From positions 1,200-65,199 of the forward strand of contig JAFWFL010000080.1 of assembly GCA_017515595.1 (NCBI GenBank): a stretch of DNA of 64,000 nucleotides, written 5' to 3'. The notes beneath the pieces are model-generated. The model was given only the letters and a program-made list of their open reading frames with translations. It searched no databases and was not told where the DNA came from. The first letter of the stretch is position 1; each line of letters opens with the position of its first letter. The translations under genes and the position numbers were made by a program. Source of the DNA: Coriobacteriales bacterium. GTDB taxonomy: Bacteria > Actinomycetota > Coriobacteriia > Coriobacteriales > UMGS124. Below, piece after piece: positions 14,900-38,184 of this stretch.

Positions 14900-15916
14900 A
14901 TGGGTTCGTACGCTGACAAGGGGTTTTCTCGGCATATTTGCGTTTGTCTGGAGTTTCTCTCGGAGGAACACAAACAAGTCATAGCAGATGCCGCTCATAA
15001 TTTTGGATTCGATGTACGTTTTTTTGAGGACGAGAAAGACGCCGGGCTTGCGGAGTGTCTCCGGGAGGCTGAGGTTCTGTTTGCCCACTCGCCTGAGCTT
15101 GTGCGTGCGGCTTCAGACAAGCTCTCGTGGTATTGCTGCGCATATGCCGGCGTAGACCCCTATTGTGCCGACCCCGGCATGTTCGCAAACCCGAATTGTC
15201 TTTTGACAAACTCCTCGGGTGCTTACGACGAAACCATTGGCGAGCATCTTATTATGGTTGCGCTTATGCTTTTGCGCCGCATGCCCGAGTATGCTCATAT
15301 AATTGCCGGGAGAATCTGGAAGCGCGACCTTGCGGTACGCTCTATTTGCGACGTACGCATTACCGTACTGGGAGCCGGGAACATTGGGTCATCATTCGCC
15401 CGTAAAGCCGCAGCTCTTGGCGCACAAAATATAATTGGCGTAAACAGATCAGGCAAACAGCGCGAACCGTATGCCGAGATGTATGCGCTTGACGGACACG
15501 ACGGCAAGGGCGGGCTTGACGCGGTCCTCCCCCAAACCGACATGCTTGTGATGGCATTGCCCGGCACCAAAGACACGGTGGGCATTCTTTCGCGCGAACG
15601 TATAGCACTGCTCCCTCAGGATGCCCTCGTGATCAATATTGGACGCGGAAGCGCCATTGACCAGCCGGCAATTATTGATGCGCTTAACTCCGGTCATCTG
15701 GCAGGGGCTGCGCTCGACGTTATGACACCTGAACCTTTGCCTGCAAGCGACCCGCTCTGGGATGCAAAAAACGCCCTTATTACACCTCACATTTCGGGGA
15801 ACATGACGCTTACCTGGACCCGCGATGAGTGCGTTCGTCTGTTTTTGGAAGACCTTGCCAACTATGCCAATGGCAGGCCTCTTGTGCGGCTGGTTGATAA
15901 GACTGCCGGCTATTAA
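14900..15916 (+). CDS. D-isomer-specific 2-hydroxyacid dehydrogenase family protein, NAD-binding
   Basis: NAD fold VLGAGNIGSSFARKA and catalytic region NIGRGSAIDQPAIIDALNSGHLAGAALDVMTPEPLP..ITPHISG. The start is set at ATG 14900, 6 nt after GGGGAGG. The stop shares a TTAA (15913-15916) with the convergent LuxR gene. Confidence 0.85.
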   Translation: MGSYADKGFSRHICVCLEFLSEEHKQVIADAAHNFGFDVRFFEDEKDAGLAECLREAEVLFAHSPELVRAASDKLSWYCCAYAGVDPYCADPGMFANPNCLLTNSSGAYDETIGEHLIMVALMLLRRMPEYAHIIAGRIWKRDLAVRSICDVRITVLGAGNIGSSFARKAAALGAQNIIGVNRSGKQREPYAEMYALDGHDGKGGLDAVLPQTDMLVMALPGTKDTVGILSRERIALLPQDALVINIGRGSAIDQPAIIDALNSGHLAGAALDVMTPEPLPASDPLWDAKNALITPHISGNMTLTWTRDECVRLFLEDLANYANGRPLVRLVDKTAGY

Positions 15917-17574
15917 GCCTGTTTGGCGTCATCAATAATATCTATAAGCTCCTGGCGTGAATGAATGCCAAGCTTACTATAGACATTTTTTATATGTGAC
16001 CGCACGGTATTGATTGATACACCCAAAAGGTCGGCCGTTTTCTCAAGGCTGTACCCGCGCGAGAAATACTGCGCTGTTTCGCTTTCGCGCGCGGTGAGAG
16101 CATAGGTTTTTGCGACGTAATCCAGGGCGTCTTCGAATGTGCGGCCTTCAGGGAGGGGGCCGTTGGGTTCGCTCGGGGTTTCTGCGGGTTTCTCGGCCTG
16201 TAAAGACAATGAATCGCCCGTTGTCTCTTGAACGGGGCTTGCGGCGCCGGCTTGCTTCATAAGCATGTTATTCAAAAGCACTATAACACCTATGAGCAGG
16301 ATAAATATTATGCCCATGCTCACATATGAGGTTACCATTGAGGAATCAAACAATGCCTCGCGCAAGATTGCCGGAACGCCAATAAAGCGGGCAATACCTG
16401 AGATAGACTCGGGAATAAAGAGCATGAGACCCAACAATCTCGTAAGCCCAAACGGCATGTTTGGCGCCGAGAAAATCGCGAACAAGAACATGAGCAGCGT
16501 GAAACATACCCGCGCTGTGGTAATAAAGTCGCTCCCGAGAATACGCAGTTCTTCATCAGGCGAGAAGACCAAAAGAAACACTCCGGCAAAAAACAGTACC
16601 ACAAATACGGTCCAGTTCCAGAATATAACACGCTTGACCGGGAATTCCCGGACGAGGAGGATCACTGATATCAAAACCACCACAACATTAATGACGGTCA
16701 TCATTGTGGTATGCCAGGTAAGTCCCGTATTAACATACCAGGGATTTGTGACACCGCGGGCAACGTTACCGGTAAAACAAAAGAGCGCAAACAAGATCAT
16801 GAATGCAAACGGAATACCCGCTGATGCGAGCGATTGTGAAAGCGAAGGGATGGGTTTTTGCTCAGGGACTTCTATGCTCAGTCCACGTGACGGATGTGTA
16901 AGGAGAACCAAGCAACCAATGGTAAGCACAGGACAAAGCAAACGTATGATCCCTTGCAATACTATGGGCATCAACAGAACCGCATTGCTAAAAAAGCACA
17001 GGCCAAATGATAAAAACGCTGCGATTGCCGCCTTTTGTGCGGGCATCTCCATAAGCGCAGAGCCATACCACAAGACTGCCGCCATAAAATAAAGCGCGCT
17101 TAAAACCGCTCCTACTGATAAGACCGCTCCAAGGATTTCTTGCGGAACAGGAATCCAGAGCGCAAGCTCACTGATAATACCAATAACTGCAAGACACACA
17201 GCAAACACAAGAGACTCATGCCGGTGCATCCAATAAGCTATGCGCGGAGCAAGAAGCGCAACACATAAAGAAAAAAGCGCAAACGCTATGGCAAACGAGG
17301 TATAAGCAATTTGGGAGGTAGCGGTATCATACGCAAAAGAAGCAACCAAAAACGAGAGATGGTGAGCCCTGAAGTACGGCCAAAGCGGCGCCATACCCAA
17401 AGCAGGTAAAACAATATGCGCGAGTCCTTTGTCCGCAACGCCCACAAGCCTCTCCCTTGCTTTGCTGCCCACAAAATCATTTTTAAAATTGTAGCACGTC
17501 CAAGACCGTACATGACAACAAAACCGTAAGAGTTCCGTTTTATGCATGATGCGGTTCATATGAACGGAGAACAT
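15913..17574 (-). CDS. Polytopic-membrane LuxR-family transcriptional regulator
   Basis: About 10 or more hydrophobic segments followed by a C-terminal LuxR/FixJ HTH (TARESETAQYFSRGYSLEKTADLLGVSINTVRSHIKNVYSKLGIHSRQELIDII). The start codon is uncertain because no SD is seen at any of the first Met codons. Confidence 0.8.
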   Translation of the reverse strand: MFSVHMNRIMHKTELLRFCCHVRSWTCYNFKNDFVGSKARERLVGVADKGLAHIVLPALGMAPLWPYFRAHHLSFLVASFAYDTATSQIAYTSFAIAFALFSLCVALLAPRIAYWMHRHESLVFAVCLAVIGIISELALWIPVPQEILGAVLSVGAVLSALYFMAAVLWYGSALMEMPAQKAAIAAFLSFGLCFFSNAVLLMPIVLQGIIRLLCPVLTIGCLVLLTHPSRGLSIEVPEQKPIPSLSQSLASAGIPFAFMILFALFCFTGNVARGVTNPWYVNTGLTWHTTMMTVINVVVVLISVILLVREFPVKRVIFWNWTVFVVLFFAGVFLLVFSPDEELRILGSDFITTARVCFTLLMFLFAIFSAPNMPFGLTRLLGLMLFIPESISGIARFIGVPAILREALFDSSMVTSYVSMGIIFILLIGVIVLLNNMLMKQAGAASPVQETTGDSLSLQAEKPAETPSEPNGPLPEGRTFEDALDYVAKTYALTARESETAQYFSRGYSLEKTADLLGVSINTVRSHIKNVYSKLGIHSRQELIDIIDDAKQA

Positions 17575-17590
17575 AAGAGCTTGAATAGCA

Positions 17591-17620
17591 TTGACACTTA
17601 TATCTCGTTATCTCTAAGAT
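17591..17620 (+). promoter_or_regulatory. Candidate sigma70-type promoter for hicAB (TTGACA-N18-TAAGAT)
   Basis: TTGACA at 17591-17596 and TAAGAT at 17615-17620, about 100 nt upstream of hicA. The region is AT-rich, so chance matches are likely. Confidence 0.3.
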
Positions 17621-17640
17621 AATTCAAATACATTGTGAGT

Positions 17641-17697
17641 TATATATTAATTCGCTTAATATTAAATCTATTTAATACTTAAGTAGATTAATATATA
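17641..17697. promoter_or_regulatory. AT-rich nested palindrome upstream of hicA (candidate TA autoregulation operator)
   Basis: TATATATTAAT (17641-17651) is the exact reverse complement of ATTAATATATA (17687-17697). An inner ATTAAAT/ATTTAAT pair lies between them. Confidence 0.35.
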
Positions 17698-17716
17698 CAT
17701 ACCGAAAGGAAACACA

Positions 17717-17893
17717 TTGACAAAGCAAAGAATGCTGATCAAAGAACTCATAGATGCCGGATTTAAGTACATTAAAACAAACGGAGGACATGATAAGTAC
17801 CGAAAAGATAAGATAACAATTGCAATTCCTCATCATAGAGAAATAAGTGACCAGATGGCAGACATCATTAGAAAAGAAGCAGGTTTAAAATAA
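17717..17893 (+). CDS. hicA: HicA-family mRNA interferase toxin
   Basis: 58-aa ORF, below the track cutoff: (M)TKQRMLIKELIDAGFKYIKTNGGHDKYRKDKITIAIPHHREISDQMADIIRKEAGLK. It matches the HicA/YcfA pattern (G-G/S-H, PHH, C-terminal ..AGL). The TTG start at 17717 lies 4 nt after GAAAGGAAA; an alternative ATG is at 17732. Confidence 0.8.
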   Translation: MTKQRMLIKELIDAGFKYIKTNGGHDKYRKDKITIAIPHHREISDQMADIIRKEAGLK

Positions 17894-17935
17894 TCCAATT
17901 CTACTTTTTATTCTTATCATACGATCGGAGCAAAA

Positions 17936-18385
17936 ATGATTTTTATTCGAGAATTTGAATTATTCGAGAATGAAGGTATGACACTAGCAATTCCTCATGA
18001 TATGCCAGGTGGTACAGAGGGCTATAATTTTCAGGATGCAATCGAAATGGCCGCGGACTGGCTTAGGATGATGGCGGAGGATGCTCTTATACGTGGAGTT
18101 GATCTTCCCGGTGGAAATCTGGGTCAAGAACCGGAACATGGCGGTAAAATGGTTATCATTGCCATCCAGGCTGATCTAAAAAACGTCCCATCAATAACTG
18201 CGCTCGAAGCTGCTCAAAAACTTGGCATATCTCAAGCCCGTGTAAAACAGCTTTGCGATTCCGGACTTCTTGAGTCATGGAAAATTGGCAGAACGCGTAT
18301 GGTCTCACTCGATTCTGTCAATGCTCGTCTTGCAGAGCAGCCAAAAGCCGGACGCCCAAAACAAACTGAAGTAGTTTCTGCATAA
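17936..18385 (+). CDS. hicB: HicB-family antitoxin with a C-terminal HTH DNA-binding domain
   Basis: 149 aa, 42 nt downstream of hicA. HicB-like N-terminal part (..EGMTLAIPHDMPGGTEGYNFQDAIEMAADWL..). C-terminal HTH ITALEAAQKLGISQARVKQLCDSGLL. SD GGAG. Confidence 0.78.
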   Translation: MIFIREFELFENEGMTLAIPHDMPGGTEGYNFQDAIEMAADWLRMMAEDALIRGVDLPGGNLGQEPEHGGKMVIIAIQADLKNVPSITALEAAQKLGISQARVKQLCDSGLLESWKIGRTRMVSLDSVNARLAEQPKAGRPKQTEVVSA

Positions 18386-18478
18386 ACCCAAAATATTCAA
18401 CAACCATAATCAACAAACATAAATAACTGAAATATGGTGAATTACGTAGCTCATAAAACGGAAAAGAAACAAAATGGT

Positions 18479-19033
18479 TTATTGTTTTTCATCATCTGAA
18501 ATCATCCATCGTTTTGGTGTTTTGATTTGATGAAAGCGAATCGAGGGTCTTGTAAGTCTTATGTCGGTAAACCCCTGAATTGTATCAACCACATCACTAT
18601 TGCAAGAATCATTAAGAAGTATTAATGATAAAGCACCAGTTGGACACGCTTCGACACAAGCCGGTATTTCTCCTCTATCCTGACGGGTTGCGCACATGTT
18701 GCAACGGGTTACTTTATTGGTAGAAGCATTGTATTGCGGAGCATGGTAGGGGCAAGCTGTCACACACCTACGGCAACCATTACATAGACTCGAATTTATT
18801 TCAACAATCCCGTCATGTCTCTTATTAAATGCCCGCTCGGGACATACTCGGAAACACTCCGGATTTTCGCAGTGATTACATGCCATCGAGAGAAAAACTC
18901 CCTCTTCGATCTCAATTACGTGACGCCAGTGAATATGAGAAGGAGTTAGGTTTTCATTACGGCACGCCATTTCGCATGCCCGGCATCCAATACAAAGGCT
19001 GACATCAACAAGAAAAGCCTTCGGGTTGTTCAT
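18479..19033 (-). CDS. 4x[4Fe-4S] ferredoxin-type subunit (DmsB/PsrB-like) of the Tat-less molybdoenzyme
   Basis: 184 aa with four Cys clusters: CIGCRACEMAC, CNHCENPECFRVCP, CNGCRRCVTACP and CNMC..ACVEACP. Its start overlaps the upstream catalytic-subunit gene by 29 nt. Confidence 0.88.
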   Translation of the reverse strand: MNNPKAFLVDVSLCIGCRACEMACRNENLTPSHIHWRHVIEIEEGVFLSMACNHCENPECFRVCPERAFNKRHDGIVEINSSLCNGCRRCVTACPYHAPQYNASTNKVTRCNMCATRQDRGEIPACVEACPTGALSLILLNDSCNSDVVDTIQGFTDIRLTRPSIRFHQIKTPKRWMISDDEKQ

Positions 19034-21014
19034 ATGGGCTCACCTTTCTGATGCGGACCTTGCAATCAAAAAACGGGCAACTCTCTGCTGAAGGAAATGA
19101 CCCTCCAAAAAGATTGTTTACACAGAACCGATCGCTCTGTTCAACATAGACAACATTATTGGGAAGTTTTGCATTAACACAAGCCTCAGAAAGCATCGAT
19201 CCTCTTGCAGAGCACACCTCAATGGTATCTCCATTACGAATCTCTTGATTTGAGGCAATATGTGAGGATATCTCAGCGGTTGGCATCTTCTTTTGCATGG
19301 GATTAAGCCAGGTGAGAGTCTCATATTGAGAGTGAAATTTCAAAAGAGACTGAGGTGTAAGTAAATAATAAGGATAATCACAAACTGACAGACTGATTTC
19401 TGAATGTAAGTCAGATAATAAAGAACTATCAAAACAATATCTCCAGGTATCCGGGAGAGGTTCTTTGATTTTCTTAAATGACTGTTTGCGCAAATCATCA
19501 ATAGAGTTAAAACCGTACTCATCCTCCATCTGAGGAATAAAAAACTTGCATATCCAGTCAAGTGCGTTCATTTCTGATGGAAATGCCGAGAAACCCGGTT
19601 TGATTCGGTTTATATAGCTTGATAGTTCTCGGGCAATTTGCAGATCACTCTTTGATTCATAAAATGACGGAAGAGTTTTTTCATTCAAGGTAAGCCAATT
19701 ATGCCAAAAACTGACAATCAGATCTTCTTCCTCAAAAAAGGACGCTGCCGGCAACACAATGTCTGCTTGGCGGGCTGTTTTTGTGAGATACAAATCAACA
19801 CACACAACTAGCTCCAGCTGGCTAAATAAGTCATACCAAGCAGCTAAGTCAAAACCCTGTGAAAGAGGGTTGGCACAAGAAACCCAAAGCATTTTGAGAG
19901 GAGGATCCTGCAGGCCAAGAGCTTCTTGAGGAAAGGTATTTATATTAACAAATCTTCCCTCGCCATCAGTGCTGTGAGGTTTGCAGTACTCTATCATAAA
20001 CTCAGCAGGATCAGTGTAAGCTTTATTGTAAAAGTACAGACCTCCACCGGCAGTATAATAACTCCCTGTTAACGCAATCAATGCACTGATTGCGTTAACC
20101 GCTTTTCCAGCGCCACGATACCGTTGCATCCCAAACCCTGTCAGACATGCTATCGCGTTATGCTCCAAGAACAATTTACATAAACAATCAAAAGCTTCCG
20201 TTGAGAGTCCTGTATGAGAAAGTACCTCATCTATTAAAAGCCTATCGAGCTCCCGGGCAAATTCAGCGTAACCACATGTGTGTTCCTTTATAAAGCCTTC
20301 ATCTATGTGTTTTACTTCAACGAGCCGTTTGGCAATACCCAATGCCAGCCATTCATCAGAATGAGGCTCGATTTGAAAATAGTAATCTGCTCTCTTTGCT
20401 GTATTGGTAAAAACCGGATCTATAACAACAAGAGGAACGCTTTTGTCTTTACGGGCTTTGTAAATAATACGCATCAGATTGATATTTGTAGATGTAGGAT
20501 TTCCTCCCCAAATAACAATAAGATTAGCTTTATGCATGTCTTCAGGATCAGGGTGAGGAAAACTTCCCATGGTCTTCTCGAGCACATGTATTCCGGTGTC
20601 GGCGCATATGTTTCCTGTCAAATTGGTACACGATCCCAAACCGGCAAACATACCTTCAACAGCATGGTGAAGAAGGCCAATGTTTCCCGTTCCTTTATAG
20701 TATCCAATGGCTTTATTGGACCCAAAGGTTTTGTTGAGCTCAATTATCTTTAATGAAATAATATCATAAGCCTGGTCCCAGGAAATACGCCGCCATTCCC
20801 CTGATCCGCGGCGCAGTTGTTTGAGTGGATATCTTAAACGATAATCATCAAGTGTATATTGAATAAGTGAATAGCCTTTTGCACAAAGACTCCCTTGGGT
20901 ATAGCCATGCTTTGAATCGCCAATTACTCTTATTAGTCTTTCACCTTTTACATTGGAAAACATTGCGCATGATCCGTAGCAGTGACGCGGACAGGCATTG
21001 CGAAATTGAGTCAT
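19005..21014 (-). CDS. Molybdopterin (bis-MGD) oxidoreductase catalytic subunit, no Tat leader (predicted cytoplasmic), substrate unknown
   Basis: 669 aa from ATG 21014 (MTQFRNACPRHCYGSCAM..GSLCAKGY = C-x3-C-x3-C..C FS0 cluster motif). Overall layout is that of COG0243-type molybdopterin oxidoreductases (..VIWGGNPTSTN.., ..VVIDPVFTNTAKRAD..). No RR motif is present in any upstream in-frame extension. Confidence 0.85.
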   Translation of the reverse strand: MTQFRNACPRHCYGSCAMFSNVKGERLIRVIGDSKHGYTQGSLCAKGYSLIQYTLDDYRLRYPLKQLRRGSGEWRRISWDQAYDIISLKIIELNKTFGSNKAIGYYKGTGNIGLLHHAVEGMFAGLGSCTNLTGNICADTGIHVLEKTMGSFPHPDPEDMHKANLIVIWGGNPTSTNINLMRIIYKARKDKSVPLVVIDPVFTNTAKRADYYFQIEPHSDEWLALGIAKRLVEVKHIDEGFIKEHTCGYAEFARELDRLLIDEVLSHTGLSTEAFDCLCKLFLEHNAIACLTGFGMQRYRGAGKAVNAISALIALTGSYYTAGGGLYFYNKAYTDPAEFMIEYCKPHSTDGEGRFVNINTFPQEALGLQDPPLKMLWVSCANPLSQGFDLAAWYDLFSQLELVVCVDLYLTKTARQADIVLPAASFFEEEDLIVSFWHNWLTLNEKTLPSFYESKSDLQIARELSSYINRIKPGFSAFPSEMNALDWICKFFIPQMEDEYGFNSIDDLRKQSFKKIKEPLPDTWRYCFDSSLLSDLHSEISLSVCDYPYYLLTPQSLLKFHSQYETLTWLNPMQKKMPTAEISSHIASNQEIRNGDTIEVCSARGSMLSEACVNAKLPNNVVYVEQSDRFCVNNLFGGSFPSAESCPFFDCKVRIRKVSPYEQPEGFSC

Positions 21015-21151
21015 ACGGCAATACCCCCTCAATCAGACAACAGCGTGGGCTTCAACTCATCCCGCCTGCATTTTTAGCTGGCACCAACAAAAATAATACG
21101 TAATTATACTTGAAGTATTGTTTAGTTTTGAACCCAGCATCTTACAAAAGA

Positions 21152-22408
21152 TTATATAGTTTTATCGATGATATGCAAGCGCTTAATCTTAAACACAGCA
21201 ACAAGATTTAAACGCGTCTCCATGTCATTAAGAGAGCAATCCAGAATAGACTCTATTTTTGAAAGCTTGTATCGCAGGGTATTTCGGTGCAAAAAAGTAA
21301 TCTGTGCGGTCTCGTTTACACTAAAACCGCATTCTACAAAGCTTTCGAGAATACTTAGAAGATCCTCCTTTTCGTCTTCATACTCAAGAAGCGGCCCAAG
21401 AATTTGATGAAAGTACCCTCGTAGATCTTCAAGATCGTGTTTAAACAGAATACAGTCAAGACCCATTTCATTGAAAAACGAAATTTTTTCTCCCTTTAAG
21501 GTGCCAATCTCAAGAGCAATTTTCGCTTCTTGGAAGCTACGGAAAAGATCTACGGGCTCCTGATATGGCTGTCCTACACCACATGCGAGAGACGATATGC
21601 CGTTGTTCTCGTCAAATGATTTGAGAATATCCTCAAAGAGGCCAATTACTTCTCGTTTTTGATCAGATTTGCAGTTTCCTTTTGTTTCAATTACTGCTGT
21701 TATCATATTCCTGCTGATAGTTGTCCCCGTACTTGTCCCCCATTTTGAAGCGAGAACCCTGTCAACAGTAGTCTTAAGTATCTCTGCTGAATAGGAGTTT
21801 TGCAGAGTAGTAGAATAATCATAGGTACTGACCACCAGAACAAGATGCGGATGGTGAAACTCCCAGCCCCATATTTTGCCCATAGAAATAATATCGCTAT
21901 TGCTTTTTATGTTGCCAAATAACAGGTCATAGAAAAAGGCTTCTTTTAGTCTGCGGTTTTCTTGTTTGATACTTACTCGATTTTTGATGTGTGTCACATA
22001 AAGTGATAACGCCACTTCTATTGAGTCGTTAAACCTAGTGGGGATAGAACTATCTTCATCGCACAGAACGAGACAATATCCAAGCACTTGCTCATTCTGG
22101 GTTATAGTCCATCCGAATGAGCGGTATTGATTTTCTGTTCCCACTAAAACGCATGAAAAGGTGTATTCGTTCTCATTAACAGGCTTGCGCTGTATAATAC
22201 GATAGCCATTAGTTCCGAGGTTGTCCGGCGATGCAGCAACCACCTCTCCGTCAGCAGCCAAAACAACAACGGGACTATTTATCATAAGAGACAGGGCATC
22301 TGTAAGGGCACTGACATTCCGACCGGATGCTATAATCAATTGTTTAATGGTAACCTGCGATGCAGCATTATCATTGTCTGATTTCATGCTCTCACCTGTA
22401 ATTCTCAA
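21152..22408 (-). CDS. PucR/CdaR-family transcriptional regulator
   Basis: 418 aa. The C-terminal HTH ..NETAQITFLHRNTLRYKLSKIESIL is the PucR C-terminal HTH signature. The alternative start ATG 22387 (MKSDNDN) follows GGTGAG. Confidence 0.82.
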   Translation of the reverse strand: MRITGESMKSDNDNAASQVTIKQLIIASGRNVSALTDALSLMINSPVVVLAADGEVVAASPDNLGTNGYRIIQRKPVNENEYTFSCVLVGTENQYRSFGWTITQNEQVLGYCLVLCDEDSSIPTRFNDSIEVALSLYVTHIKNRVSIKQENRRLKEAFFYDLLFGNIKSNSDIISMGKIWGWEFHHPHLVLVVSTYDYSTTLQNSYSAEILKTTVDRVLASKWGTSTGTTISRNMITAVIETKGNCKSDQKREVIGLFEDILKSFDENNGISSLACGVGQPYQEPVDLFRSFQEAKIALEIGTLKGEKISFFNEMGLDCILFKHDLEDLRGYFHQILGPLLEYEDEKEDLLSILESFVECGFSVNETAQITFLHRNTLRYKLSKIESILDCSLNDMETRLNLVAVFKIKRLHIIDKTI

Positions 22409-22416
22409 AGACAGGG

Positions 22417-23109
22417 TTATTGCCAGGCATTATCCAACTCAAGAATAATATCAGCATAGTTTTTAAGGAACCGGGCAACAGCAAGAGCGGCTTGCGGATA
22501 GAGCAGGCATGGCATTGCGGTTTGGATAGCATTTGCGAAACTATCAATCCATACAAGCAGGTGCTTGTTTAAAAAATGCTGTTGGCTAAGCAGGCTTTTC
22601 TTGGCGTTTTCCATATCTCCCTGCTCGTAATATGAAAAAGCAGAGGCGGCCAGGTGTGCCATAAAATCTAACTCAAGAGCAAGATGATCATCTGCTTCAT
22701 GCGGATAATTACTCGGAACATAGCCATGCTGTTTATACAGCCTGCGCACATCAAATGTGCAAGACTGGAAAAGCATACGCTCATCAGTTGCAAAAACTGA
22801 TTCCCAAGGCGGGGCCGGAAGTTTTGATGGCCCAACTAAAAGATGCGTGTATTCGCTTAACAAACTGTCAAGCAAGCTGTCGTGATCTGCCAATCTTTTT
22901 GATGTAATATCCTCAAAAGCATTAAGAAGTATTTGCAGGTTTTCATCATTTTCATTGAATACCATGCCAAGTACGCTGAATGTATACTTATCAGCAAACA
23001 CATCAAGCATGGCATCATCTGGCTCGCTTCCAAAAATTCGATGAAAAAGCTGGTAGCTGTAATGGCACGCAGCCAGTATAACGGCAATGCTATCGTCTTG
23101 TGTAGCCAT
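22417..23109 (-). CDS. TorD/DmsD-family redox-enzyme maturation chaperone (module 1)
   Basis: LLVGPSKLPAPPWESVF..YPHEADDHLALELDFMAHLA is the TorD/DmsD signature. The start is set at ATG 23109 by alignment with the paralog at 37504. The track start at 23127 is a TTG. Confidence 0.85.
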   Translation of the reverse strand: MATQDDSIAVILAACHYSYQLFHRIFGSEPDDAMLDVFADKYTFSVLGMVFNENDENLQILLNAFEDITSKRLADHDSLLDSLLSEYTHLLVGPSKLPAPPWESVFATDERMLFQSCTFDVRRLYKQHGYVPSNYPHEADDHLALELDFMAHLAASAFSYYEQGDMENAKKSLLSQQHFLNKHLLVWIDSFANAIQTAMPCLLYPQAALAVARFLKNYADIILELDNAWQ

Positions 23110-23133
23110 GAATAAAACCGCCTTCAATGTCCC

Positions 23134-23163
23134 GAACCCCTTCCGTCAAACCGGAAGGGGTTC
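23134..23163 (-). other. 12-bp GC-rich hairpin between the Fe-S subunit gene and the chaperone gene (module 1)
   Basis: GAACCCCTTCCG (23134-23145) and CGGAAGGGGTTC (23152-23163) are exact complements with a 6-nt loop. There is no U-tract on the coding strand. Confidence 0.7.
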
Positions 23164-23223
23164 AGAGGTTATTTCTGATGAATGTATATTATCATGCATT
23201 CACTCTGATTACAGACATATATT

Positions 23224-23802
23224 CTAAACTTGTTTTTCTCTGAAATCCGGTAATTCAGCGCATGCTTTGCAGGAAATCAGAAGAGAAGGCTCTGTCATGC
23301 CTGCTGATGGCAGAATGGGGAGTTCACTCACAACGTCATCACCATGCTTCGCTCTGAGCTCATCTAAATCTCCAAATTCAAGAGCCCTCATTGGACATGC
23401 GTCAACACATGCCGGATTCCATCCATTATCGCGAAGCTGTTTGCAGCTGTCGCACTTTTGAACTATGCCCAGAGACTCAATATACTGCGGAACTGAATAA
23501 GGACAAGCTTGGATGCATGACAGGCAGCCAATGCATAGTTCATCATCGTGTTGTACGGTTCCATCTTCAGCAACAAACATGGCTCCAACAGGACATACGG
23601 GAACACATGCCGGATTTGCACAGTGGTTGCAAGTTCCCGAATAGTGATATGCTTTGGTTTGAGGGAATACTCCAACTTCAAAGGTTCGAACATTCCGGAA
23701 AAGAACTCCTATTTCAAGATTATTCTTATCCTTACAAGCAACTTGGCAGGCACGGCATCCGGTGCAGATGGTTTGATCAAAATAGAATCCCAGGGTACCC
23801 AT
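23224..23802 (-). CDS. DmsB-like 4x[4Fe-4S] electron-transfer subunit (module 1)
   Basis: 192 aa with CTGCRACQVAC, CNHCANPACVPVCP, CIGCLSCIQACP and CDSC..ACVDACP. Its ATG overlaps the stop of the A subunit (TAATG). Confidence 0.9.
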   Translation of the reverse strand: MGTLGFYFDQTICTGCRACQVACKDKNNLEIGVLFRNVRTFEVGVFPQTKAYHYSGTCNHCANPACVPVCPVGAMFVAEDGTVQHDDELCIGCLSCIQACPYSVPQYIESLGIVQKCDSCKQLRDNGWNPACVDACPMRALEFGDLDELRAKHGDDVVSELPILPSAGMTEPSLLISCKACAELPDFREKQV

Positions 23803-26510
23803 TACTCGTCATCTCCTTCCACAACAGCGATTCTCTGAGGACGTTCGACATCGGGGAGAAGGGGTTCTCCTGCGTACTTCTCAAACGTTACAATATTCGA
23901 ATTGAAAGCCTCAACACCTTGACCCTGAAGCAGTGCACTTGTCAGAATATTGTCTGCACCGCCCCTGTCGATGCCGGTTTCGGGATCAGGATCTACCCAA
24001 GAACCATGAGGGAGGCTAACAATACCAGGCATAAGCCTCTCGGTAACAACAGCCCTACGCAACGTCTTGCCATTCATGTTCTCGATAAGAACGGTATCGC
24101 CGTCTTCAATTCCCTTTTCGCGAGCATCTGATGCATTGAGATATACAGGGTTCGGAAATGCCTCACGCAGCTGAAGTACGTTGTCAAAACCGCTATGGGC
24201 ACGACGCAGGTAATGCGGGTTGATAATTTGATATGGGTATGCACCTTTCTCTTTGGTTTCCCAATTTTCAAAGGTACATTCATAGCCATTCTTAGGAGGT
24301 ACGTAAGTAGGCAAGGGTTTAATCTCACTCCAGCCTGCTGCATTGATTCGCTCGGCAAGCCCGGTCGAGTAGATCTCGATCTTTCCGCTGGCTGAAGAAG
24401 GCAGAGGATGAGCTTCAGGATCATTACGGAATGCTTCGAAAGCAATATAGCCATAGTTGTCACCGGGGCTACGCTTTACCTGATAGTATCCCGTCTTCAA
24501 GAATTCTTCGAGAGAAATCTTGCCTTCTTGCGGAGTACCCTCAACACCCCATGATTCAATATCTTCTTCAGTGATCGTAATGAGAGGACCATAGTCAACG
24601 CCATTGTCCTGGATTACTGTACAGCTCTTAAGCTCATTAAAGAATTGCTGCTTGGGTCCAAACGGATACACGCTGTCAACGTCAACTCCCAACCGCTTAC
24701 ACAACTCAATATCAATCTCTTGATCAGTTTTTGCTTCAAAGAGAGGCGGCACAACGTTGCGGTAAGCAATAACAACTTCGCGGTTGGGGAAGGAGTTTCT
24801 GGGGAAACCACCAATGGTTTCCCATTCAGTGGTTGTAGGAAGAACAAGGTCAGAGAACATCGCGCTGGTTGAGAGTGTGTAATCCTGTGTGACTACAAAC
24901 TCGACCTGTCTAACTGCTTCGATACCGCTGTTCATATCTTCAGCGGTCTGAAGCTTGTTCATATACTTATAGAAATAAATCATTTCGATATCGATATCTC
25001 GCTCTTCCCTCGGAAGATAGAGACTCTTCCCACAGAAATTATATTTGTGGGTAAGGATTGCATTCCATACCTCGCCCAGATGGATAGCATCATCAACCGG
25101 GTTTGATATTGTAGGAAGTCCGGCTGATCCGGGATTGACCAGCGAGAGACCGCCATTTGCGGTAAAATAGCTGTGGCTTGGGCCTGTCATGTGTCCCGAC
25201 TTACCCATATGGCCGGTCATGGCACCAATTGTCGCAATCATCTGAGGAAGGTTATCGGAATTCTGCGTACGTGCGCTTGCCCAACCACAAACAATGGCAA
25301 CCTTTTTGTCAACACGCATCTCCTGGGCAAGATACCTAATGCGCTCAGGTTCAAGACCGCAGATCTCAGATGCCCATTCAGGTGTCTTAGGAATACCGTC
25401 ATAAGTACCAAGCACATAATCCTTAAAGTTCTCTTCAGGATTAACACCTTCAGGCATATGATCTGCATCAAAACCCAAAGTACAACGGTCAAGGAAGTCC
25501 CAATCAATAAGAGGATTGTTTTCAGGATCATCTTCAGTGATCAGCGTATAGGCAACACCAAGGAGTAATGCCATATCGGTACCGGGGCGTACAGGCAACC
25601 AATCAGCGTCCATAGCTTGGGCAAGGTCATTGTAATAAGGATCAACAGCAATAAACTTGGCACCGGTTTTCTTTGCCTGAGCCCAATGATAATTATTAGT
25701 ACCGGCAGAATTCCATGCAGTATTGAGTGAAATCATAATGATGGTCTCACAATTACGCAGATCAAGCCTGTCGTTAATAGTATCGCGAGACGTGTATGAA
25801 GCCGCCCATTGAATATAGCCGGGGCGGTCAAAGACAGGATAGCTATAAGGCATATAGCCCATTAAAAACGGAGTAACCTGCCAAGAACCATATGAAGTAG
25901 AACCATAGTGAGACACGGCTCCACCATAAGAATTAATAGCGTTACAAGGTCCACCAAATGAAAGGATAGAACGGTTTCCGTACTTCTCGACAACGCGTTT
26001 AATCTCGCTGGACAGGATATCAAAAGCCTCATCCCATGAAATACGCACCCATTCATCCCTGCCGCGCAGCGATTTGTCTCCGCCACCTGGCTCCCAATGC
26101 TTACGCTTCATAGGGTACTTAAGACGGTCAGCTCCAAACACATTCTTGCGCTGGGAACGGCCGCGAATACAACCGCGTTGCTGAGGATAATCTGGTGAAT
26201 CCTCGTGAGTATCGTCTGTTTTCTGACGTACAACTTCGCCGTCTACAACTAATGCATAGTTAGCGCACTGACTACCACAATTGAACCAGCAGGCTGCGGG
26301 AATCCATTCTCCCTTATCACTCACAGCGATGTCCACGGAAGAATTGGTATCTTCTGCTTCAGTTTGTTCTGCACTCACCATATCTGCAAGTGCTAAACCA
26401 TTACCCATATGGCTTGTAAAGGCCAATCCAACGGCACCAACTGCAGCTGCATTCAGGAAGTCTCTCCGGTCAACCATTTTGCCGGCTGCTTGTTTAAGGA
26501 AATCTGACAT
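23802..26510 (-). CDS. Tat-exported DMSO-reductase-family molybdoenzyme, DmsA-like catalytic subunit (module 1)
   Basis: The start is set at ATG 26510, preceded by GGAGGAGTCA. Twin-arginine leader MSDFLKQAAGKMVDRRDFLNAAAVGAVGLAF. FS0 motif CWFNCGSQC..C. DmsA-like blocks DRLKYPMKRK, GTYDGIPKTPEWASEICG and SGKIEIYS. Confidence 0.9.
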   Translation of the reverse strand: MSDFLKQAAGKMVDRRDFLNAAAVGAVGLAFTSHMGNGLALADMVSAEQTEAEDTNSSVDIAVSDKGEWIPAACWFNCGSQCANYALVVDGEVVRQKTDDTHEDSPDYPQQRGCIRGRSQRKNVFGADRLKYPMKRKHWEPGGGDKSLRGRDEWVRISWDEAFDILSSEIKRVVEKYGNRSILSFGGPCNAINSYGGAVSHYGSTSYGSWQVTPFLMGYMPYSYPVFDRPGYIQWAASYTSRDTINDRLDLRNCETIIMISLNTAWNSAGTNNYHWAQAKKTGAKFIAVDPYYNDLAQAMDADWLPVRPGTDMALLLGVAYTLITEDDPENNPLIDWDFLDRCTLGFDADHMPEGVNPEENFKDYVLGTYDGIPKTPEWASEICGLEPERIRYLAQEMRVDKKVAIVCGWASARTQNSDNLPQMIATIGAMTGHMGKSGHMTGPSHSYFTANGGLSLVNPGSAGLPTISNPVDDAIHLGEVWNAILTHKYNFCGKSLYLPREERDIDIEMIYFYKYMNKLQTAEDMNSGIEAVRQVEFVVTQDYTLSTSAMFSDLVLPTTTEWETIGGFPRNSFPNREVVIAYRNVVPPLFEAKTDQEIDIELCKRLGVDVDSVYPFGPKQQFFNELKSCTVIQDNGVDYGPLITITEEDIESWGVEGTPQEGKISLEEFLKTGYYQVKRSPGDNYGYIAFEAFRNDPEAHPLPSSASGKIEIYSTGLAERINAAGWSEIKPLPTYVPPKNGYECTFENWETKEKGAYPYQIINPHYLRRAHSGFDNVLQLREAFPNPVYLNASDAREKGIEDGDTVLIENMNGKTLRRAVVTERLMPGIVSLPHGSWVDPDPETGIDRGGADNILTSALLQGQGVEAFNSNIVTFEKYAGEPLLPDVERPQRIAVVEGDDE

Positions 26511-26988
26511 TGACTCCTCCATCTTAATCAAACAACAAAAAATAGAAAGAGGCCAGATGATAAGTATCGTATTATGCGTTATTTTATGATTTGTTTAGGC
26601 TTTGGCGCCAAAAGCCCACTCTCTCATATGCAAAAACGAAATCCCTCATCTCTCCGATGTCATTTTAACACATCAATTATTCAAACCATATGTTTTAAAG
26701 CACACATTACGGTCCGTTTTTTGTGCACGGGTTACAGTACAAACGCATTCGTGTTGTCATGAATTAGGGAAATATCTGTGCGCAGGAACAATACTGAAGA
26801 GTCCGTTGCTCTTTTATGTTGTGTCCCATGATTTATGTGATCCATGTTTTACCTGCGGGTTTGTAAAATCATCAATGAGATGTGAGGACATTTTTGAGCG
26901 GGTAGGGCACACTTATGGGCAAGCCAGACGTCGTGAAGACATACGAATGGCGTTTATTCAAACTGTTCTCATGAAAGGGGAACTTAGC

Positions 26989-28545
26989 ATGGAAATGAAT
27001 CGTAGGCAATTTGTTGCTTCATCCGCAGCCGCTGCAGCTCTCGCCGCAAGCGCAGGTATTGTTTCTTCTGCAGCAGCAGACGAGGCTCCTGCCCAGTCAT
27101 GGCGTGTCCGCCCGGCAGCCGTAACCGAGTTTGCCGAGGAAATCGACGCTGACGTTGTTGTTGCCGGCGCCGGCATCAGCGGTGTTTGCGCAGCTCTCAA
27201 GGCTGTTCAGATGGGCGCAAAGACTGTTGTTCTTCAGAAGAGCCCCTACGTTATGACCCACGGCGGCAACTTTGGCGCCATCAACGACCGTTTCCAGAAG
27301 GAAGCCGGCAACCCCGAGATTGACCCCATGGACATTCTTCAGCATCACCTCAAGTACAACAACTATCGTCCGCAGTTTGAGTACGCAAAGTGCATCTTCG
27401 CCGAGAGCGCCGAGACTCTCGAATGGATTGCCGACTCAACCGACACCACCTGGAAGGCCTCCACTCCTCGTGAGACCAACAAGATGGACTGGGACAACAC
27501 CACCTTTGTTACCGGCCACAGCAACAGCGCCGGCAAGGCAATTGACCTTGCAAACGTTATCATGAACAAGGCCATTGAGCTTGGCGCCGAGCTTCTGCTC
27601 TCAACCCCCATTGTTGACACCATCGAGGACGAGAACGGCCGCGTTATCGCCGCTGTTGCCCAGCGTCTCGAGGATGGCGCTTACATCAAGGTAAACGCTG
27701 CTAAGGCCGTTATCCTCTCCACCGGCGACTACGGTTCAAACTATGAGATGTGCGCCGAGATGTGCCCCTGGGTTGTTGGCACCCACAACTACTACAACCC
27801 CAACGACAACACCGGTGACGGCCACAAGATTGGTACCTGGCTGGGCGCCAAGATGGAGACCCTGCCCCACACCAAGATGGCCCACATCCACAACTCAATC
27901 GACGGCAGCAACCTCACCGACTCTCCCGTCAAGAGCGACCCCTTCCTCTGGGTTAACCAGGACGGCAAGCGTTTCGCCAACGAGCACATGGAGTATGCAA
28001 TGGTCTGCAACACCGTGCGCGAGCAGCCGGGCGACGTCTTCTATGTAGTTCATGACGCAAACTACAACGCTCAGCGCGCAGCCTTCCTCAACGCCAAGGG
28101 CGAAATCAAGGACGAGCAGATCGAGACCGCAATCGAGCTTGGTTACACCGTTAAGGCCGACACTCTTGAGGAGTGCGCAGCTGCCATGGACATTCCTGCA
28201 GAGGCTCTTCTTGAGACCGTTGCCCGTTACAACGAGCTCGCAGCTGCCGGTATGGACGAGGACTTTGGCAAGCCTGCTCAGGATCTTCAGCCCATCGAGA
28301 CCGCTCCGTTCTATGTAACCCGCACCTACACCCCCATGGACGTAACCATGGGCGGCCTTATGGTCAACACGAAGATGCAGGTTCTCAAGGAGGACGGCAG
28401 CATCATTGAGGGTCTTTATGCAACCGGTAACACCGCCGGCGGCTTCTACGGCGGCATTGACTATGACCTCGAAGTAGACGCATTCAGCCTTGGCCGCGCC
28501 GTAACTTCCGGCCGCCTTGCCGCTCAGTACGCCTGCGCCGAGTAA
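26989..28545 (+). CDS. Tat-exported FAD-dependent oxidoreductase (fumarate-reductase/flavocytochrome-c flavoprotein-like)
   Basis: The start is set at ATG 26989 (MEMNRRQFVASSAAAAALAASAGIVSSAAA, a Tat leader), after AAAGGGGAA. Rossmann motif DVVVAGAGISGVCAAL. C-terminal GLYATGNTAGGFYGG. The 129 upstream codons of the track ORF are rejected. Confidence 0.87.
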   Translation: MEMNRRQFVASSAAAAALAASAGIVSSAAADEAPAQSWRVRPAAVTEFAEEIDADVVVAGAGISGVCAALKAVQMGAKTVVLQKSPYVMTHGGNFGAINDRFQKEAGNPEIDPMDILQHHLKYNNYRPQFEYAKCIFAESAETLEWIADSTDTTWKASTPRETNKMDWDNTTFVTGHSNSAGKAIDLANVIMNKAIELGAELLLSTPIVDTIEDENGRVIAAVAQRLEDGAYIKVNAAKAVILSTGDYGSNYEMCAEMCPWVVGTHNYYNPNDNTGDGHKIGTWLGAKMETLPHTKMAHIHNSIDGSNLTDSPVKSDPFLWVNQDGKRFANEHMEYAMVCNTVREQPGDVFYVVHDANYNAQRAAFLNAKGEIKDEQIETAIELGYTVKADTLEECAAAMDIPAEALLETVARYNELAAAGMDEDFGKPAQDLQPIETAPFYVTRTYTPMDVTMGGLMVNTKMQVLKEDGSIIEGLYATGNTAGGFYGGIDYDLEVDAFSLGRAVTSGRLAAQYACAE

Positions 28546-33715: not shown

Positions 33716-34034
33716 GATAAATAGTAATTATCGCAAGAAGAGCCTCATATTATATGCAGACATTACGGATATCGGGAAATGTGCATGTGAACAACCACTA
33801 TTCACTGGGGGATGGGTTTTACCAAATGTTAAGTTAGTAAACCTCGTACCTGCATATTCTTAGTAATTCATACATTTTTATGACATGCTTTTTGGACTTT
33901 AGGGTCTTTGGATGATACCCGGAACGGGCTTTGCGGCTCATACTTACAGAACCGGGCGTTTTGGCAATTTGTTTTTTAGTCTTTTGCCACCCACCCGCGG
34001 AGAGAATACCAAAAGGGATCAAGGAGGGAGAAAC

Positions 34035-36701: not shown

Positions 36702-36732
36702 GCAGCCAACAAAAAAGATTGGAGGCCTGACA

Positions 36733-37371
36733 ATGGCTAAACAGCTTGGTTTTTATATCAATGCCGACAATTGCATAGGCTGCAAGGCGTGCGTTGCAGC
36801 CTGCAAGGATAAGAATGACCTGCCCCTCGGCGAAAAAATGCGCCGCGTATTTGAATACGCCGGTTGTGATTGGGATGTGTCTGAGACGGGCGCCTGCATG
36901 CCGTCAAACTTCTTTGCATACTCGATTTCTATCGCATGTAACCATTGCGCTGAGCCCGCCTGCGTGGCCAGCTGCCCGGTTGGCGCTATGACAAAGCGCG
37001 AAGAAGACGGTATTGTTTACGTTGACAAAGAGCTCTGCATTGGATGCGGAACTTGCGCACAGGTATGCCCATACGGCGCTCCGTACCTTGGTGTTGACGA
37101 TCTCTCATGCAAGTGCGACTTCTGCATGGATCTCATTGACGAGGGCAAAACGCCGTATTGTGTTGCCATTTGCCCCACTCGCTGCCTCGAATTTGGCGAC
37201 ATCGAGGAGCTTCGTGCCAAGTACGGCAACGTTGACGGTATCGAGCCTATTCCTATGAATACCGGTACCATGCCGTCACTCGTCATTGGCACCAACCGTC
37301 TGAACCCCGACGGTTCAATCCCCGGCACACTCATCACCACTGAGCAGGAACTTGTGAGCGAAGCGGTATAA
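36733..37371 (+). CDS. DmsB-like 4x[4Fe-4S] electron-transfer subunit (module 2)
   Basis: 212 aa with CIGCKACVAAC, CNHCAEPACVASCP, CIGCGTCAQVCP and CDFC..CVAICP. SD GGAGG. Confidence 0.9.
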   Translation: MAKQLGFYINADNCIGCKACVAACKDKNDLPLGEKMRRVFEYAGCDWDVSETGACMPSNFFAYSISIACNHCAEPACVASCPVGAMTKREEDGIVYVDKELCIGCGTCAQVCPYGAPYLGVDDLSCKCDFCMDLIDEGKTPYCVAICPTRCLEFGDIEELRAKYGNVDGIEPIPMNTGTMPSLVIGTNRLNPDGSIPGTLITTEQELVSEAV

Positions 37372-37383
37372 TGTAGTATTCAT

Positions 37384-37431
37384 TGACGGGGCAGCACATT
37401 CAGAAATGAGCTTTCTGGCACTGCCCCGTCA
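37384..37431 (+). other. Long GC-rich hairpin between the Fe-S subunit gene and the chaperone gene (module 2)
   Basis: TGACGGGGCAG (37384-37394) pairs with CTGCCCCGTCA (37421-37431). An inner CAGAAA/TTTCTG pair is present. There is no U-tract. Confidence 0.7.
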
Positions 37432-37503
37432 GTGTCTATAATACGCAATAGGCTGTATAATGGCATATATGCGGTTCGTAAGTAAAAAGGAGCAGGTAAG
37501 AAC

Positions 37504-38184
37504 ATGGGTCAGGGAGAAAATCAGGGCGTCTCGATTATCCTTGCTGCACGTACGGCAATTTATAATTTGCTGCACGCTATCTTTGGCGGCGATCCTCAAG
37601 AACGGGTTTTAGAAGCGCTCTCGGACGGTAGCCTTATGCAGCTTATCTCAGTATTCTGTGATGACGGAGACAGTCTGCAACTGTCTGCCCAGCACCTTGA
37701 AGAGCACACTCGGGCTCTTAAAACCTCAGATCCTGATATCCTTGACAAACTGAGCTCTGTCTACTGCAGACTTTTTGTGGGACCCGGCAAAGTAGAAGCT
37801 GAACCATGGGAATCTGTTTATAACGAAGGCGAGGCTATGCTTTTCCAAAAGTCGACGCTTGACGTGCGCAAAGCATATGTTGCACAGGGGTTTATTCCCA
37901 AGAGCTACCCCCATGTGGCAGATGACCACATTGCCCTCGAGCTTGATTTTATGAGACAACTTGCGAAACGCATGGAAGAGACTTTGGCTTCTGACAGCGG
38001 TGAGTATGAAGTTTTGCGACAGGCTTCAGCGAAATTCCTCTCTTCACATATGCTTAACTGGGTTCCTTTGTTCTATGCAAAAGTAGAATCAGCACGCGAA
38101 CAGTTAATATATCGTGAGGCAGCAGCTTTGCTTAATGAATTTTTAAAAATCGATCTCGAAGTATTGGACGAATTAGCCAAATAA
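37504..38184 (+). CDS. TorD/DmsD-family redox-enzyme maturation chaperone (module 2)
   Basis: 226 aa. LFVGPGKVEAEPWESVY..YPHVADDHIALELDFMRQLA. SD AAGGAG. Confidence 0.87.
   Translation: MGQGENQGVSIILAARTAIYNLLHAIFGGDPQERVLEALSDGSLMQLISVFCDDGDSLQLSAQHLEEHTRALKTSDPDILDKLSSVYCRLFVGPGKVEAEPWESVYNEGEAMLFQKSTLDVRKAYVAQGFIPKSYPHVADDHIALELDFMRQLAKRMEETLASDSGEYEVLRQASAKFLSSHMLNWVPLFYAKVESAREQLIYREAAALLNEFLKIDLEVLDELAK

Follow-up and report, generated by a model that had tools for sequence, protein, structure and literature searches.

Introduction

Cytoplasmic formate dehydrogenases (FDHs) of the FdhF type, such as FdhH of E. coli (1fdi/1aa6) and the FdhF of the hydrogen-dependent CO2 reductase (HDCR) of T. 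kivui (7qv7_S), lack a twin-arginine translocation (Tat) leader, measure about 700 aa, carry the FS0 iron-sulfur motif within a four-domain bis-molybdopterin guanine dinucleotide (bis-MGD) fold, have a Cys or Sec metal ligand and are partnered by a four-cluster ferredoxin. The same features are found in A', a catalytic subunit encoded with a ferredoxin subunit, B', and a PucR-family regulator, R, in a 3.9-kb unit of a 64,000-nt stretch of a Coriobacteriales bacterium (contig JAFWFL010000080.1, positions 1,200 to 65,199 of the forward strand); this whole stretch is hereafter called the window. However, the context of FdhF is one of hydrogenase and formate genes, whereas A' lies beside a PucR-type regulator and an exported Dms-type reductase.

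Other members of the molybdenum/tungsten (Mo/W)-bis-pyranopterin superfamily, also known as the dimethyl sulfoxide (DMSO) reductase or MopB superfamily, resemble parts of this locus. The DmsABC/YnfEFGH enzymes, which include S-/N-oxide and selenate reductases, share with it a DmsB-like B' and the C-terminal 'HSQ' MGD-binding motif of A', and DmsA-family operons with DmsC and TorD/DmsD are physically and evolutionarily linked to the module. A' falls short of DmsA-type enzymes by 130-240 aa and lacks a membrane anchor. Psr/Phs enzymes (Thermus PsrA, 2vpw) combine a Cys ligand with an A-B-membrane-subunit layout, as does the Tat-bearing sister clade of A', but A' itself is cytoplasmic, lacks NrfD/PsrC, and matches PsrA at 1e-21 and PhsA at 142 bits vs 694.

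PucR-family regulators classically govern purine, proline or sugar-diacid catabolism. PucR, CdaR, AdeR and PutR share with R the GGDEF-like plus HTH_30 architecture and the C-terminal fold (9f80/3onq), but R has a GAF/PAS-like module instead of PF07905 and accompanies molybdoenzyme operons, not purine, proline or sugar-acid genes. The pairing of such a regulator with a Tat-less molybdoenzyme had not been recognized as characterized by a first-pass annotation made from the letters of the window alone, and no description of it was found in the searchable literature. Sequence comparisons now point to a widespread Tat-less clade that is constantly paired with such a regulator and constantly associated with exported respiratory reductases, which is what is new here.

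Results

A cytoplasmic molybdoenzyme, its ferredoxin and a PucR-family regulator

The features of the locus, in coordinates of the window, are as follows.

18479..19033, minus strand: B', ferredoxin subunit of 184 aa, DmsB-like, with four [4Fe-4S] motifs and without a signal peptide
19005..21014, minus strand: A', catalytic subunit of 669 aa, defined by its open reading frame (ORF), N-terminus and three Pfam domains
21015..21151, minus strand: R-A' spacer of 137 nt, with one promoter-like site
21152..22408, minus strand: R, PucR-family regulator (Pfam HTH_30 and GGDEF_2)
22417..23127, minus strand: TorD/DmsD-family chaperone of 236 aa (Pfam Nitrate_red_del, 102 bits), directly upstream of R
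23224..23802, minus strand: DmsB-like four-cluster subunit of the exported reductase (TIGR02951, 197 bits)
23802..26531, minus strand: Tat-exported 'type-2' DmsA-like catalytic subunit of 909 aa, with Tat motif and Ser-ligand region
26720..26743, no strand: inverted repeat TTTGTGC-N10-GTACAAA in the dmsA promoter region, candidate operator of R
about 17400..27000, no strand: AT-rich tract with a GC content of 0.36-0.50, holding the six genes and a HicB-like/HTH_17 gene; probable acquired island

A' begins with MTQFRNACPRHCYGSCAM and has its fourth Cys in GSLCAKGY, which completes the FS0 motif. It scores above the Pfam gathering cut-offs of Molybdopterin (139.9 bits, cut-off 24), Molydop_binding (41.1, cut-off 26.8) and Molybdop_Fe4S4 (36.3, cut-off 22.7), which places it in the Mo/W-bis-pyranopterin superfamily, with cofactor binding predicted from Cys conservation. 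ORF, sequence and Pfam agree with the 669-aa enzyme with an FS0 Cys motif of the first-pass annotation. In an alignment of 83 family sequences, FS0 Cys 8/12/16/44 are invariant, and K46 and C137 are kept in 81 and 82 sequences, respectively. C137 aligns with the Mo-ligand Cys/Sec of FdhF and lies in GNICADTG, the region in which the ligand had been expected. A' and B' retain every cofactor-binding residue.

To place the unit among its relatives, a one-genome-per-species scan that yielded 80 loci was followed by ORF and phmmer analysis; the 32 closest loci have 39-54% A' identity, and counts over 33 loci include the window. The reading frame of A' opens only six codons upstream of its ATG (21014), at TTG 21032, right after an in-frame stop, and a GAGGGGG Shine-Dalgarno sequence lies 9 nt before the ATG. 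Because the ORF extends by just these six codons, no Tat leader is possible. Furthermore, all 32 orthologues are Tat-less and start 5-25 residues before the CPRxC motif. A hidden Tat leader was excluded on both grounds, and the cytoplasmic location proposed at the outset holds family-wide.

Membership of A' in a characterized clade was assessed against the curated NCBIfam models, and A' fell below every cut-off; the best model was that of formate dehydrogenase alpha, TIGR01591 (208.5 bits vs 666.25). FDH, Nas, Nap, Phs, Arr, DmsA, BisC and Tor were ruled out by these cut-offs, and A' was rejected as an acetylene hydratase and as a transhydroxylase too. With the DmsA/YnfE model (TIGR02166), A' scores 141.5 bits vs 777.7, and it has a Cys ligand instead of Ser and no leader. 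The best solved sequence relatives are of the FdhF type (7qv7_S, E = 3.6e-31); matches to acetylene hydratase (5e-19) and transhydroxylase (8e-06) are weaker than those to FDH, Nap and Pcr enzymes. Unlike in FdhF, C137 is followed by A, S or L in the 83 sequences and in none of them by His, and the region aligned with the RGQNNVQG/Arg motif of FDHs is not conserved.

The AlphaFold2 model of A' (pLDDT 90.4, pTM 0.91) superposes on many superfamily members with template modelling (TM) scores of 0.75-0.86, at identities to solved structures, FdhF included, of at most 19%. The nearest folds are monomeric NapA of D. desulfuricans (2v45/2nap; TMq 0.86, root-mean-square deviation 3.8, 18% identity) and FdhH (0.84). 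NapA resembles A' in its Cys ligand, FS0 motif and size, but is Tat-exported; on the NapA models of NCBIfam, A' reaches about 100 bits where more than 900 are required, and no nap accessory genes accompany it. A substrate could not be read from the structure, as the fold search returned generic superfamily matches only. The model suggests a small enzyme of FdhH/NapA type in fold and cofactors. Since the cut-offs are missed, the FDH motifs are absent and structural identity does not exceed 19%, A' is, as judged from its sequence, a compact, Cys-ligated, cytoplasmic superfamily member outside all characterized clades. NCBIfam, solved-structure and fold comparisons agree on this point, which had been anticipated, and placement within the FdhF clade is refuted by cut-off and motifs. 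A' is on record from a Coriobacteriales metagenome-assembled genome (MAG) only, the next relatives being from Desulfitobacterium (54%), Desulfosporosinus (about 50%) and Bacillaceae (about 43%).

The start of B' overlaps the end of A' by 29 nt (19033 vs 19005). B' begins with MNNPKAFLVDVSLCIGC, has no twin-arginine leader and contains 16 Cys in four cluster motifs, all invariant in 31/31 orthologues, so that the 184-aa, four-cluster, overlapping ferredoxin first described is borne out. It matches Fer4_11 in Pfam (93.9 bits); on the DmsB-type model TIGR02951 it scores 137 bits, below the cut-off of 214.1, and it has the four Cys groups.

The R ORF spans 22408..21152, and the NCBI model of 411 aa begins at ATG 22387, which is the likely true start. 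R contains FLHRNTLRYKLSKIESIL and scores above cut-off for HTH_30 (64.2 bits) and GGDEF_2 (47.4 bits); coordinates and domains confirm a PucR-type regulator upstream of A' on the same strand. No match to the PucR N-terminal domain PF07905 was found in R, and all NCBIfam equivalogs were missed, the nearest being AdeR (56 bits vs 700) and CdaR (31 vs 612). In the AlphaFold2 model (pLDDT 83.7), an N-terminal alpha/beta domain resembling GAF/PAS sensor modules is followed by a long helix, a GGDEF-like domain and HTH_30, with a C-terminal half that matches the PucR-family structures 9f80 and 3onq in fold. By domain content, R is a member of the PucR family and not an equivalog of any named regulator. 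The distance from the R stop to the A' start is 137 nt in the window and mostly 3-30 nt in relatives. The spacer holds a promoter-like TTCAAA-18-TATAAT (21132..21103), which is weak because such sites are not enriched in the region overall.

The trio is conserved and tied to exported reductases

The order R, A', B' on one strand was observed in 33/33 loci, from Bacillota, Chloroflexota and Actinomycetota, and is strictly conserved. The 32 closest loci belong to Desulfitobacterium, Desulfosporosinus, Bacillaceae, Brevibacillus, Anaerolineales and one Eggerthellaceae MAG (L032), the sole other locus from Coriobacteriia, which shares with the window the order DmsA-DmsB-chaperone-R-A'. A Tat-DmsA-like, DmsB and TorD-like cluster lies at most 7 kb away in 30/31 loci with enough flank, and the window has the same content, namely the conserved trio with an exported Mo-reductase within 7 kb. 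A TorD-like chaperone gene is present in 29/33 loci. DmsC is often encoded as well (in 16 loci), and so are a radical-SAM protein of 441 aa (in 17) and a polyferredoxin (in 6); no conserved catabolic gene or transporter was found near the trio in the related loci. The first-pass annotation had taken PucR-type regulators as typically unconnected with respiratory S-/N-oxide reductases, a premise that fails for the clade of R.

Some of these extras deserve separate mention. The radical-SAM protein (CHRNCYFC; below all NCBIfam cut-offs), found for example at L003:4097-5452 and in 16 other loci, is encoded between the chaperone gene and R in many Bacillaceae/Peptococcaceae loci and is absent from the window. 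A cytoplasmic polyferredoxin of 300-360 aa follows DmsC in several loci of both Tat-less lineages described here (L005:14506-15414, L035:3581-4663) and could be an electron partner of A'B' or a NapF-like maturation factor. A 118-aa ORF without Pfam match comes right after B' at L160:12562-12918 (Desulfitobacterium) and in two loci much like it, L163:11560-11916 and L164:7880-8236, and is likewise absent from the window.

Two kinds of DmsA partner occur: some are true members of TIGR02166 with about 800 aa, whereas the others form a longer type-2 subfamily that falls below the cut-off of this model. The window DmsA, with its likely start at ATG 26510 and the Tat motif DRRDFL, belongs to the latter and is 45-56% identical to the type-2 partner genes of related loci. 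Pairwise identities of A' correlate with those of R (rho 0.88) and of DmsA (rho 0.64). Because the type-2 partners are orthologous across loci and the identities correlate, the block is taken to be co-inherited, and the upstream DmsA, DmsB and chaperone genes cannot be set apart from the unit as had been assumed.

This association is asymmetric. A metagenome scan with a type-2 DmsA alignment gave 79 loci, about 12 of which carry R, A' or B' within 10 kb, and many human-gut type-2 loci hold DmsA-DmsB alone. We also observed partner swapping, as two A' proteins 67% identical to each other adjoin DmsA types only 32% identical. Together, asymmetry and partner swapping show the trio behaving as an accessory module that needs an exported reductase; the reverse is not true.

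A neighbour-joining tree of 98 family members split Tat-less from Tat-bearing proteins, and the best solved relative of the Tat-bearing sister clade of A' is PsrA (1e-58). A second Tat-less lineage (33-37% identity; Bacillaceae, Moorella, Sporomusa, Desulfosporosinus) is likewise accompanied by B' and a PucR-type R, with B'-R forming one operon divergent from A'. It adjoins an exported chaperone-A-B-DmsC-like-polyferredoxin operon, the exported A-B-DmsC-like operon being present in 20/22 loci, and this exported enzyme is most like PsrA. Six loci of the lineage (L057, L059, L065, L070, L074, L076) have the motif TTGTGAAA..GAGCAAA..GTGAC before the exported operon and the motif GTAACAAGTTTAGAACAA between the divergent B' and A' genes; ahead of the chaperone gene lies a small ORF for a lipoprotein-like product. 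When the A' profile was searched against 1.84 billion representatives, 2,845 clusters at 50% identity were retrieved at E<=1e-30. Among the 150 that scored best, the majority measure 640-700 aa and match from the N-terminus on, and are thus Tat-less, so that the Tat-less clade is large.

A link to selenate was considered and rejected. The D. hafniense copy, at 2.538 Mb, is distinct from the selenate-induced cluster Dhaf_1954-1956 of that organism (PMC3306737).

A candidate operator in the dms promoter regions

An inverted repeat, GYACAAA-N14-TTTGTRC, is common to the R upstream regions of Bacillaceae and Desulfitobacterium. Exact copies are present in 8/32 loci, always in the divergent R|dms intergenic region and centred 42-147 bp upstream of R, and none occurs in control loci totalling about 1.09 Mb. 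At <=2 mismatches it is found in the dms promoter regions of about 17/32 loci, and in same-strand loci it lies before the dms operon and not before R. In the window, TTTGTGC-N10-GTACAAA (26720-26743) is matched once in 64 kb (0.00 expected), about 190 bp upstream of dmsA, and a third half-site is found at 26700-26706. The N14 form is absent from the window at <=2 mismatches; what the window does have is the N10 everted form and, with one mismatch, an N13 form. PutR of B. subtilis, a member of the PucR family, recognizes a TTGTG-type inverted repeat. As no other DNA-binding protein is conserved in these clusters, we infer that R binds the TTTGTRC repeat and controls the exported reductase operon.

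An operator common to the R-A' spacer and the dmsA upstream region was sought and rejected, since only a 13/16 match, TGTTGTYTGATTRAG, was recovered at the start regions of A' (21027-21042) and dmsA (26522-26537, minus strand), which is not above chance. A second block, TTACGG-N3-5-TGTGAC(A/T)T(T/C/G)(C/G)ATTG, stands beside the N14 repeat upstream of R in the Bacillaceae loci L003, L006-L008, L010-L014, L017 and L018; it resembles a Crp/Fnr-type half-site and is not in the window.

The six-gene block occupies an AT-rich island

In the window, dmsA(Tat), dmsB, the torD-like gene, R, A' and B' follow one another in this order on the minus strand. They all sit within the AT-rich tract of about 17.4-27.0 kb (GC 0.36-0.50 vs 0.54-0.58 in the flanks), from which we consider that they were probably acquired horizontally as one piece. 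The source was probably Bacillota, where the closest homologues of A', R and DmsA are found, at identities of only 42-56%. The limits of the island are drawn from GC content only, with no direct-repeat search made, and no tRNA gene was found in the 64-kb window. The 3.9-kb unit had been singled out as the most AT-rich part of the window; it does hold the 1-kb GC minimum of the 64 kb (0.394, at 21-22 kb), but the tract is wider than the unit and takes in the Tat-DmsA, DmsB and chaperone genes, so that all share one island.

No DmsC homologue that could serve as membrane anchor was found anywhere in the 64-kb window, in agreement with the initial claim that no membrane subunit is encoded. The companion claim that there is no dedicated chaperone stands only if the TorD/DmsD gene (23127..22417) belongs to DmsA; this gene lies directly upstream of R.

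Several neighbours of the island were recorded. At its low-coordinate edge, 17936-18385 (plus strand) encodes a 149-aa HTH_17 protein whose N-terminus was read as a HicB-type antitoxin, and the 400-bp GC minimum (0.355, 17400-17799) by this gene may mark an island boundary. Just outside the tract, 15913-17574 (minus strand) encodes a protein of 553 aa that is predicted to have numerous membrane helices and carries a LuxR/GerE helix-turn-helix at its C-terminus. On the other side, 26602-28545 (plus strand), in high-GC DNA directly adjoining the island, encodes an FAD_binding_2 flavoprotein. A Tat-like leader, MNRRQFVASSAAAAALAASAG, lies inside its translation, and the true start is probably near 26990. 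Further on, a second Tat-type DmsABD cluster (33912-38184, plus strand) encodes DmsA-like (929 aa), DmsB-like (212 aa) and TorD-like (226 aa) proteins without DmsC or R-A'-B', and is followed by a convergent LuxR/GerE-family regulator (38200-39654, minus strand). The LuxR-type regulator of this second cluster shows that R fills the 'regulator slot' of the island cluster.

Discussion

The explanation that we favour, tentatively and at slightly less than even confidence, is that the 3.9-kb unit is the cytoplasmic half of an acquired six-gene block in which the exported reductase is under the control of R, to which A'B' is tied as a redox-active cytoplasmic partner. According to this explanation, R would bind the TTTGTRC repeat and turn on the exported reductase operon. 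In the window, transcription of the dms operon probably reads on into the chaperone gene and the trio, and the weakly supported promoter-like site of the 137-nt spacer might act as an internal promoter. A'B' would be a soluble, catalytically active reductase with a Mo/W-bis-pyranopterin guanine dinucleotide cofactor, receiving low-potential cytoplasmic electrons via B'. In the cytoplasm it may act on the class of small, membrane-permeant oxidant used by the exported enzyme (S-/N-oxide-like), or on the product; by sharing this oxidant class or product, A'B' would be functionally tied to R. It might either be co-controlled with the exported enzyme or set the level of a ligand read by the GAF-like domain of R. 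In favour of this explanation are the conserved trio and its exported partner, the second lineage, the co-inheritance, the asymmetry and the partner swapping, the repeat at dms promoters, the contrast with the LuxR-paired cluster, the intact cofactor residues and the GAF-like domain of R.

Several observations weigh against this explanation. The half-sites in the window differ in arrangement and spacing (N10, everted) from the N14 form of the relatives, which makes the window repeat suggestive and not proven, and only about half of the loci have a detectable repeat. The sole ground for assigning it to R is that R is the sole conserved DNA-binding protein of the clusters, and the GAF-like N-terminal domain of R is poorly conserved. 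Furthermore, A' has no sequence feature marking an S-/N-oxide substrate and carries a Cys ligand, in contrast to the Ser of DmsA/TorA. DmsC is missing from both the window and L032, and neither an electron donor for A'B' nor a transporter is encoded. Finally, no experiment on, or description of, any member of the trio was found in the searchable literature.

The alternative that survives best, which we consider unlikely, is that A'B' primarily senses the oxidant, as a 'regulatory molybdoenzyme', and signals to R by contact or redox state, whereupon R would switch on the exported reductase. The idea is drawn by analogy only, from the cytoplasmic regulatory [NiFe]-hydrogenase HoxBC/HupUV, in which a signal-less cytoplasmic paralogue of an exported metalloenzyme is encoded with the regulator of its operon; that family is unrelated, however, and signals via a histidine kinase, not via a one-component regulator of the PucR type. 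The trio stays intact under differing gene orders, including a B'-R operon apart from A', and the usual translational closeness of R to A' points to matched, regulator-like expression. The dependence of the trio on an exported partner but not vice versa, and the change of partner family while A' stays similar, also suit a sensor, as does the position of the Tat-less clade as sister to Tat-bearing enzymes that it often adjoins. In same-strand loci, moreover, the operator precedes the dms operon and not R-A'-B', although this absence is weak evidence, given that the motif turned up in no more than about half of the loci. On the other hand, R has its own GAF-like ligand domain and perhaps needs no partner, no Rosetta-stone fusion of R with Fer4 or Mo domains, and thus no R-A' or R-B' fusion, was found, and the poor conservation of the N-terminal domain speaks against a fixed protein interface. 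We know of no precedent for a molybdoenzyme serving as a sensor.

It is improbable that A'B' is an autonomous, inducible cytoplasmic enzyme for a purine, N-heterocycle or phenolic, regulated by R independently of incidental Dms genes, which is close to what the first-pass annotation had proposed. The classical targets of the PucR family, the nearest NCBIfam models of R (AdeR and CdaR) and the promoter-like site in the R-A' spacer would suit it, and some cytoplasmic bis-MGD enzymes do act on organics, such as acetylene hydratase and transhydroxylase, both of which are weak matches of A'. However, the similarity to these two enzymes ranks below that to FDH, Nap and Pcr, the Dms linkage is co-inherited and seen in nearly every locus, and no conserved catabolic gene or transporter lies nearby. 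The operator-like repeat at dms promoters, together with conserved neighbours that include only Dms-type genes, the radical-SAM protein and the polyferredoxin, further disfavours such a substrate.

That A'B' is an FDH-like or other cytoplasmic dehydrogenase supplying electrons to the exported reductase is very improbable: the best sequence matches are of FdhF type, with TIGR01591 as best model, the fold is close to FdhH (TM 0.84) and B' resembles the HycB/HydN-type partners of FdhH, but A' scores 208 bits against a TIGR01591 cut-off of 666, lacks the His after the ligand Cys and a conserved RGQNNVQG/Arg region, and no membrane or NAD-linked module joins it to the quinone pool.

Gut Coriobacteriia, Desulfitobacterium and soil Bacillaceae encode dozens of unassigned bis-MGD enzymes, among which one coherent, widespread and uncharacterized module can now be defined. 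It is given a testable regulatory architecture made up of a regulator, a candidate operator, an exported target operon and a cytoplasmic partner enzyme. This architecture is unexpected and can be tested in cultured carriers, but the role of A'B' itself is one that we infer. In this genome, the block is probably a foreign island with a control logic unlike that of the native LuxR-paired DmsABD cluster 8 kb away. If A'B' is merely a co-regulated reductase, the module would still show PucR-type regulators in control of anaerobic respiration operons and add a new Cys-ligated clade. If it were true that A'B' informs R, the molybdoenzyme superfamily would gain its first metalloenzyme-based sensor, a counterpart of the regulatory [NiFe]-hydrogenase. 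This would apply to a large and widespread clade, and would change the annotation of 'orphan' cytoplasmic Mo enzymes near respiratory operons.

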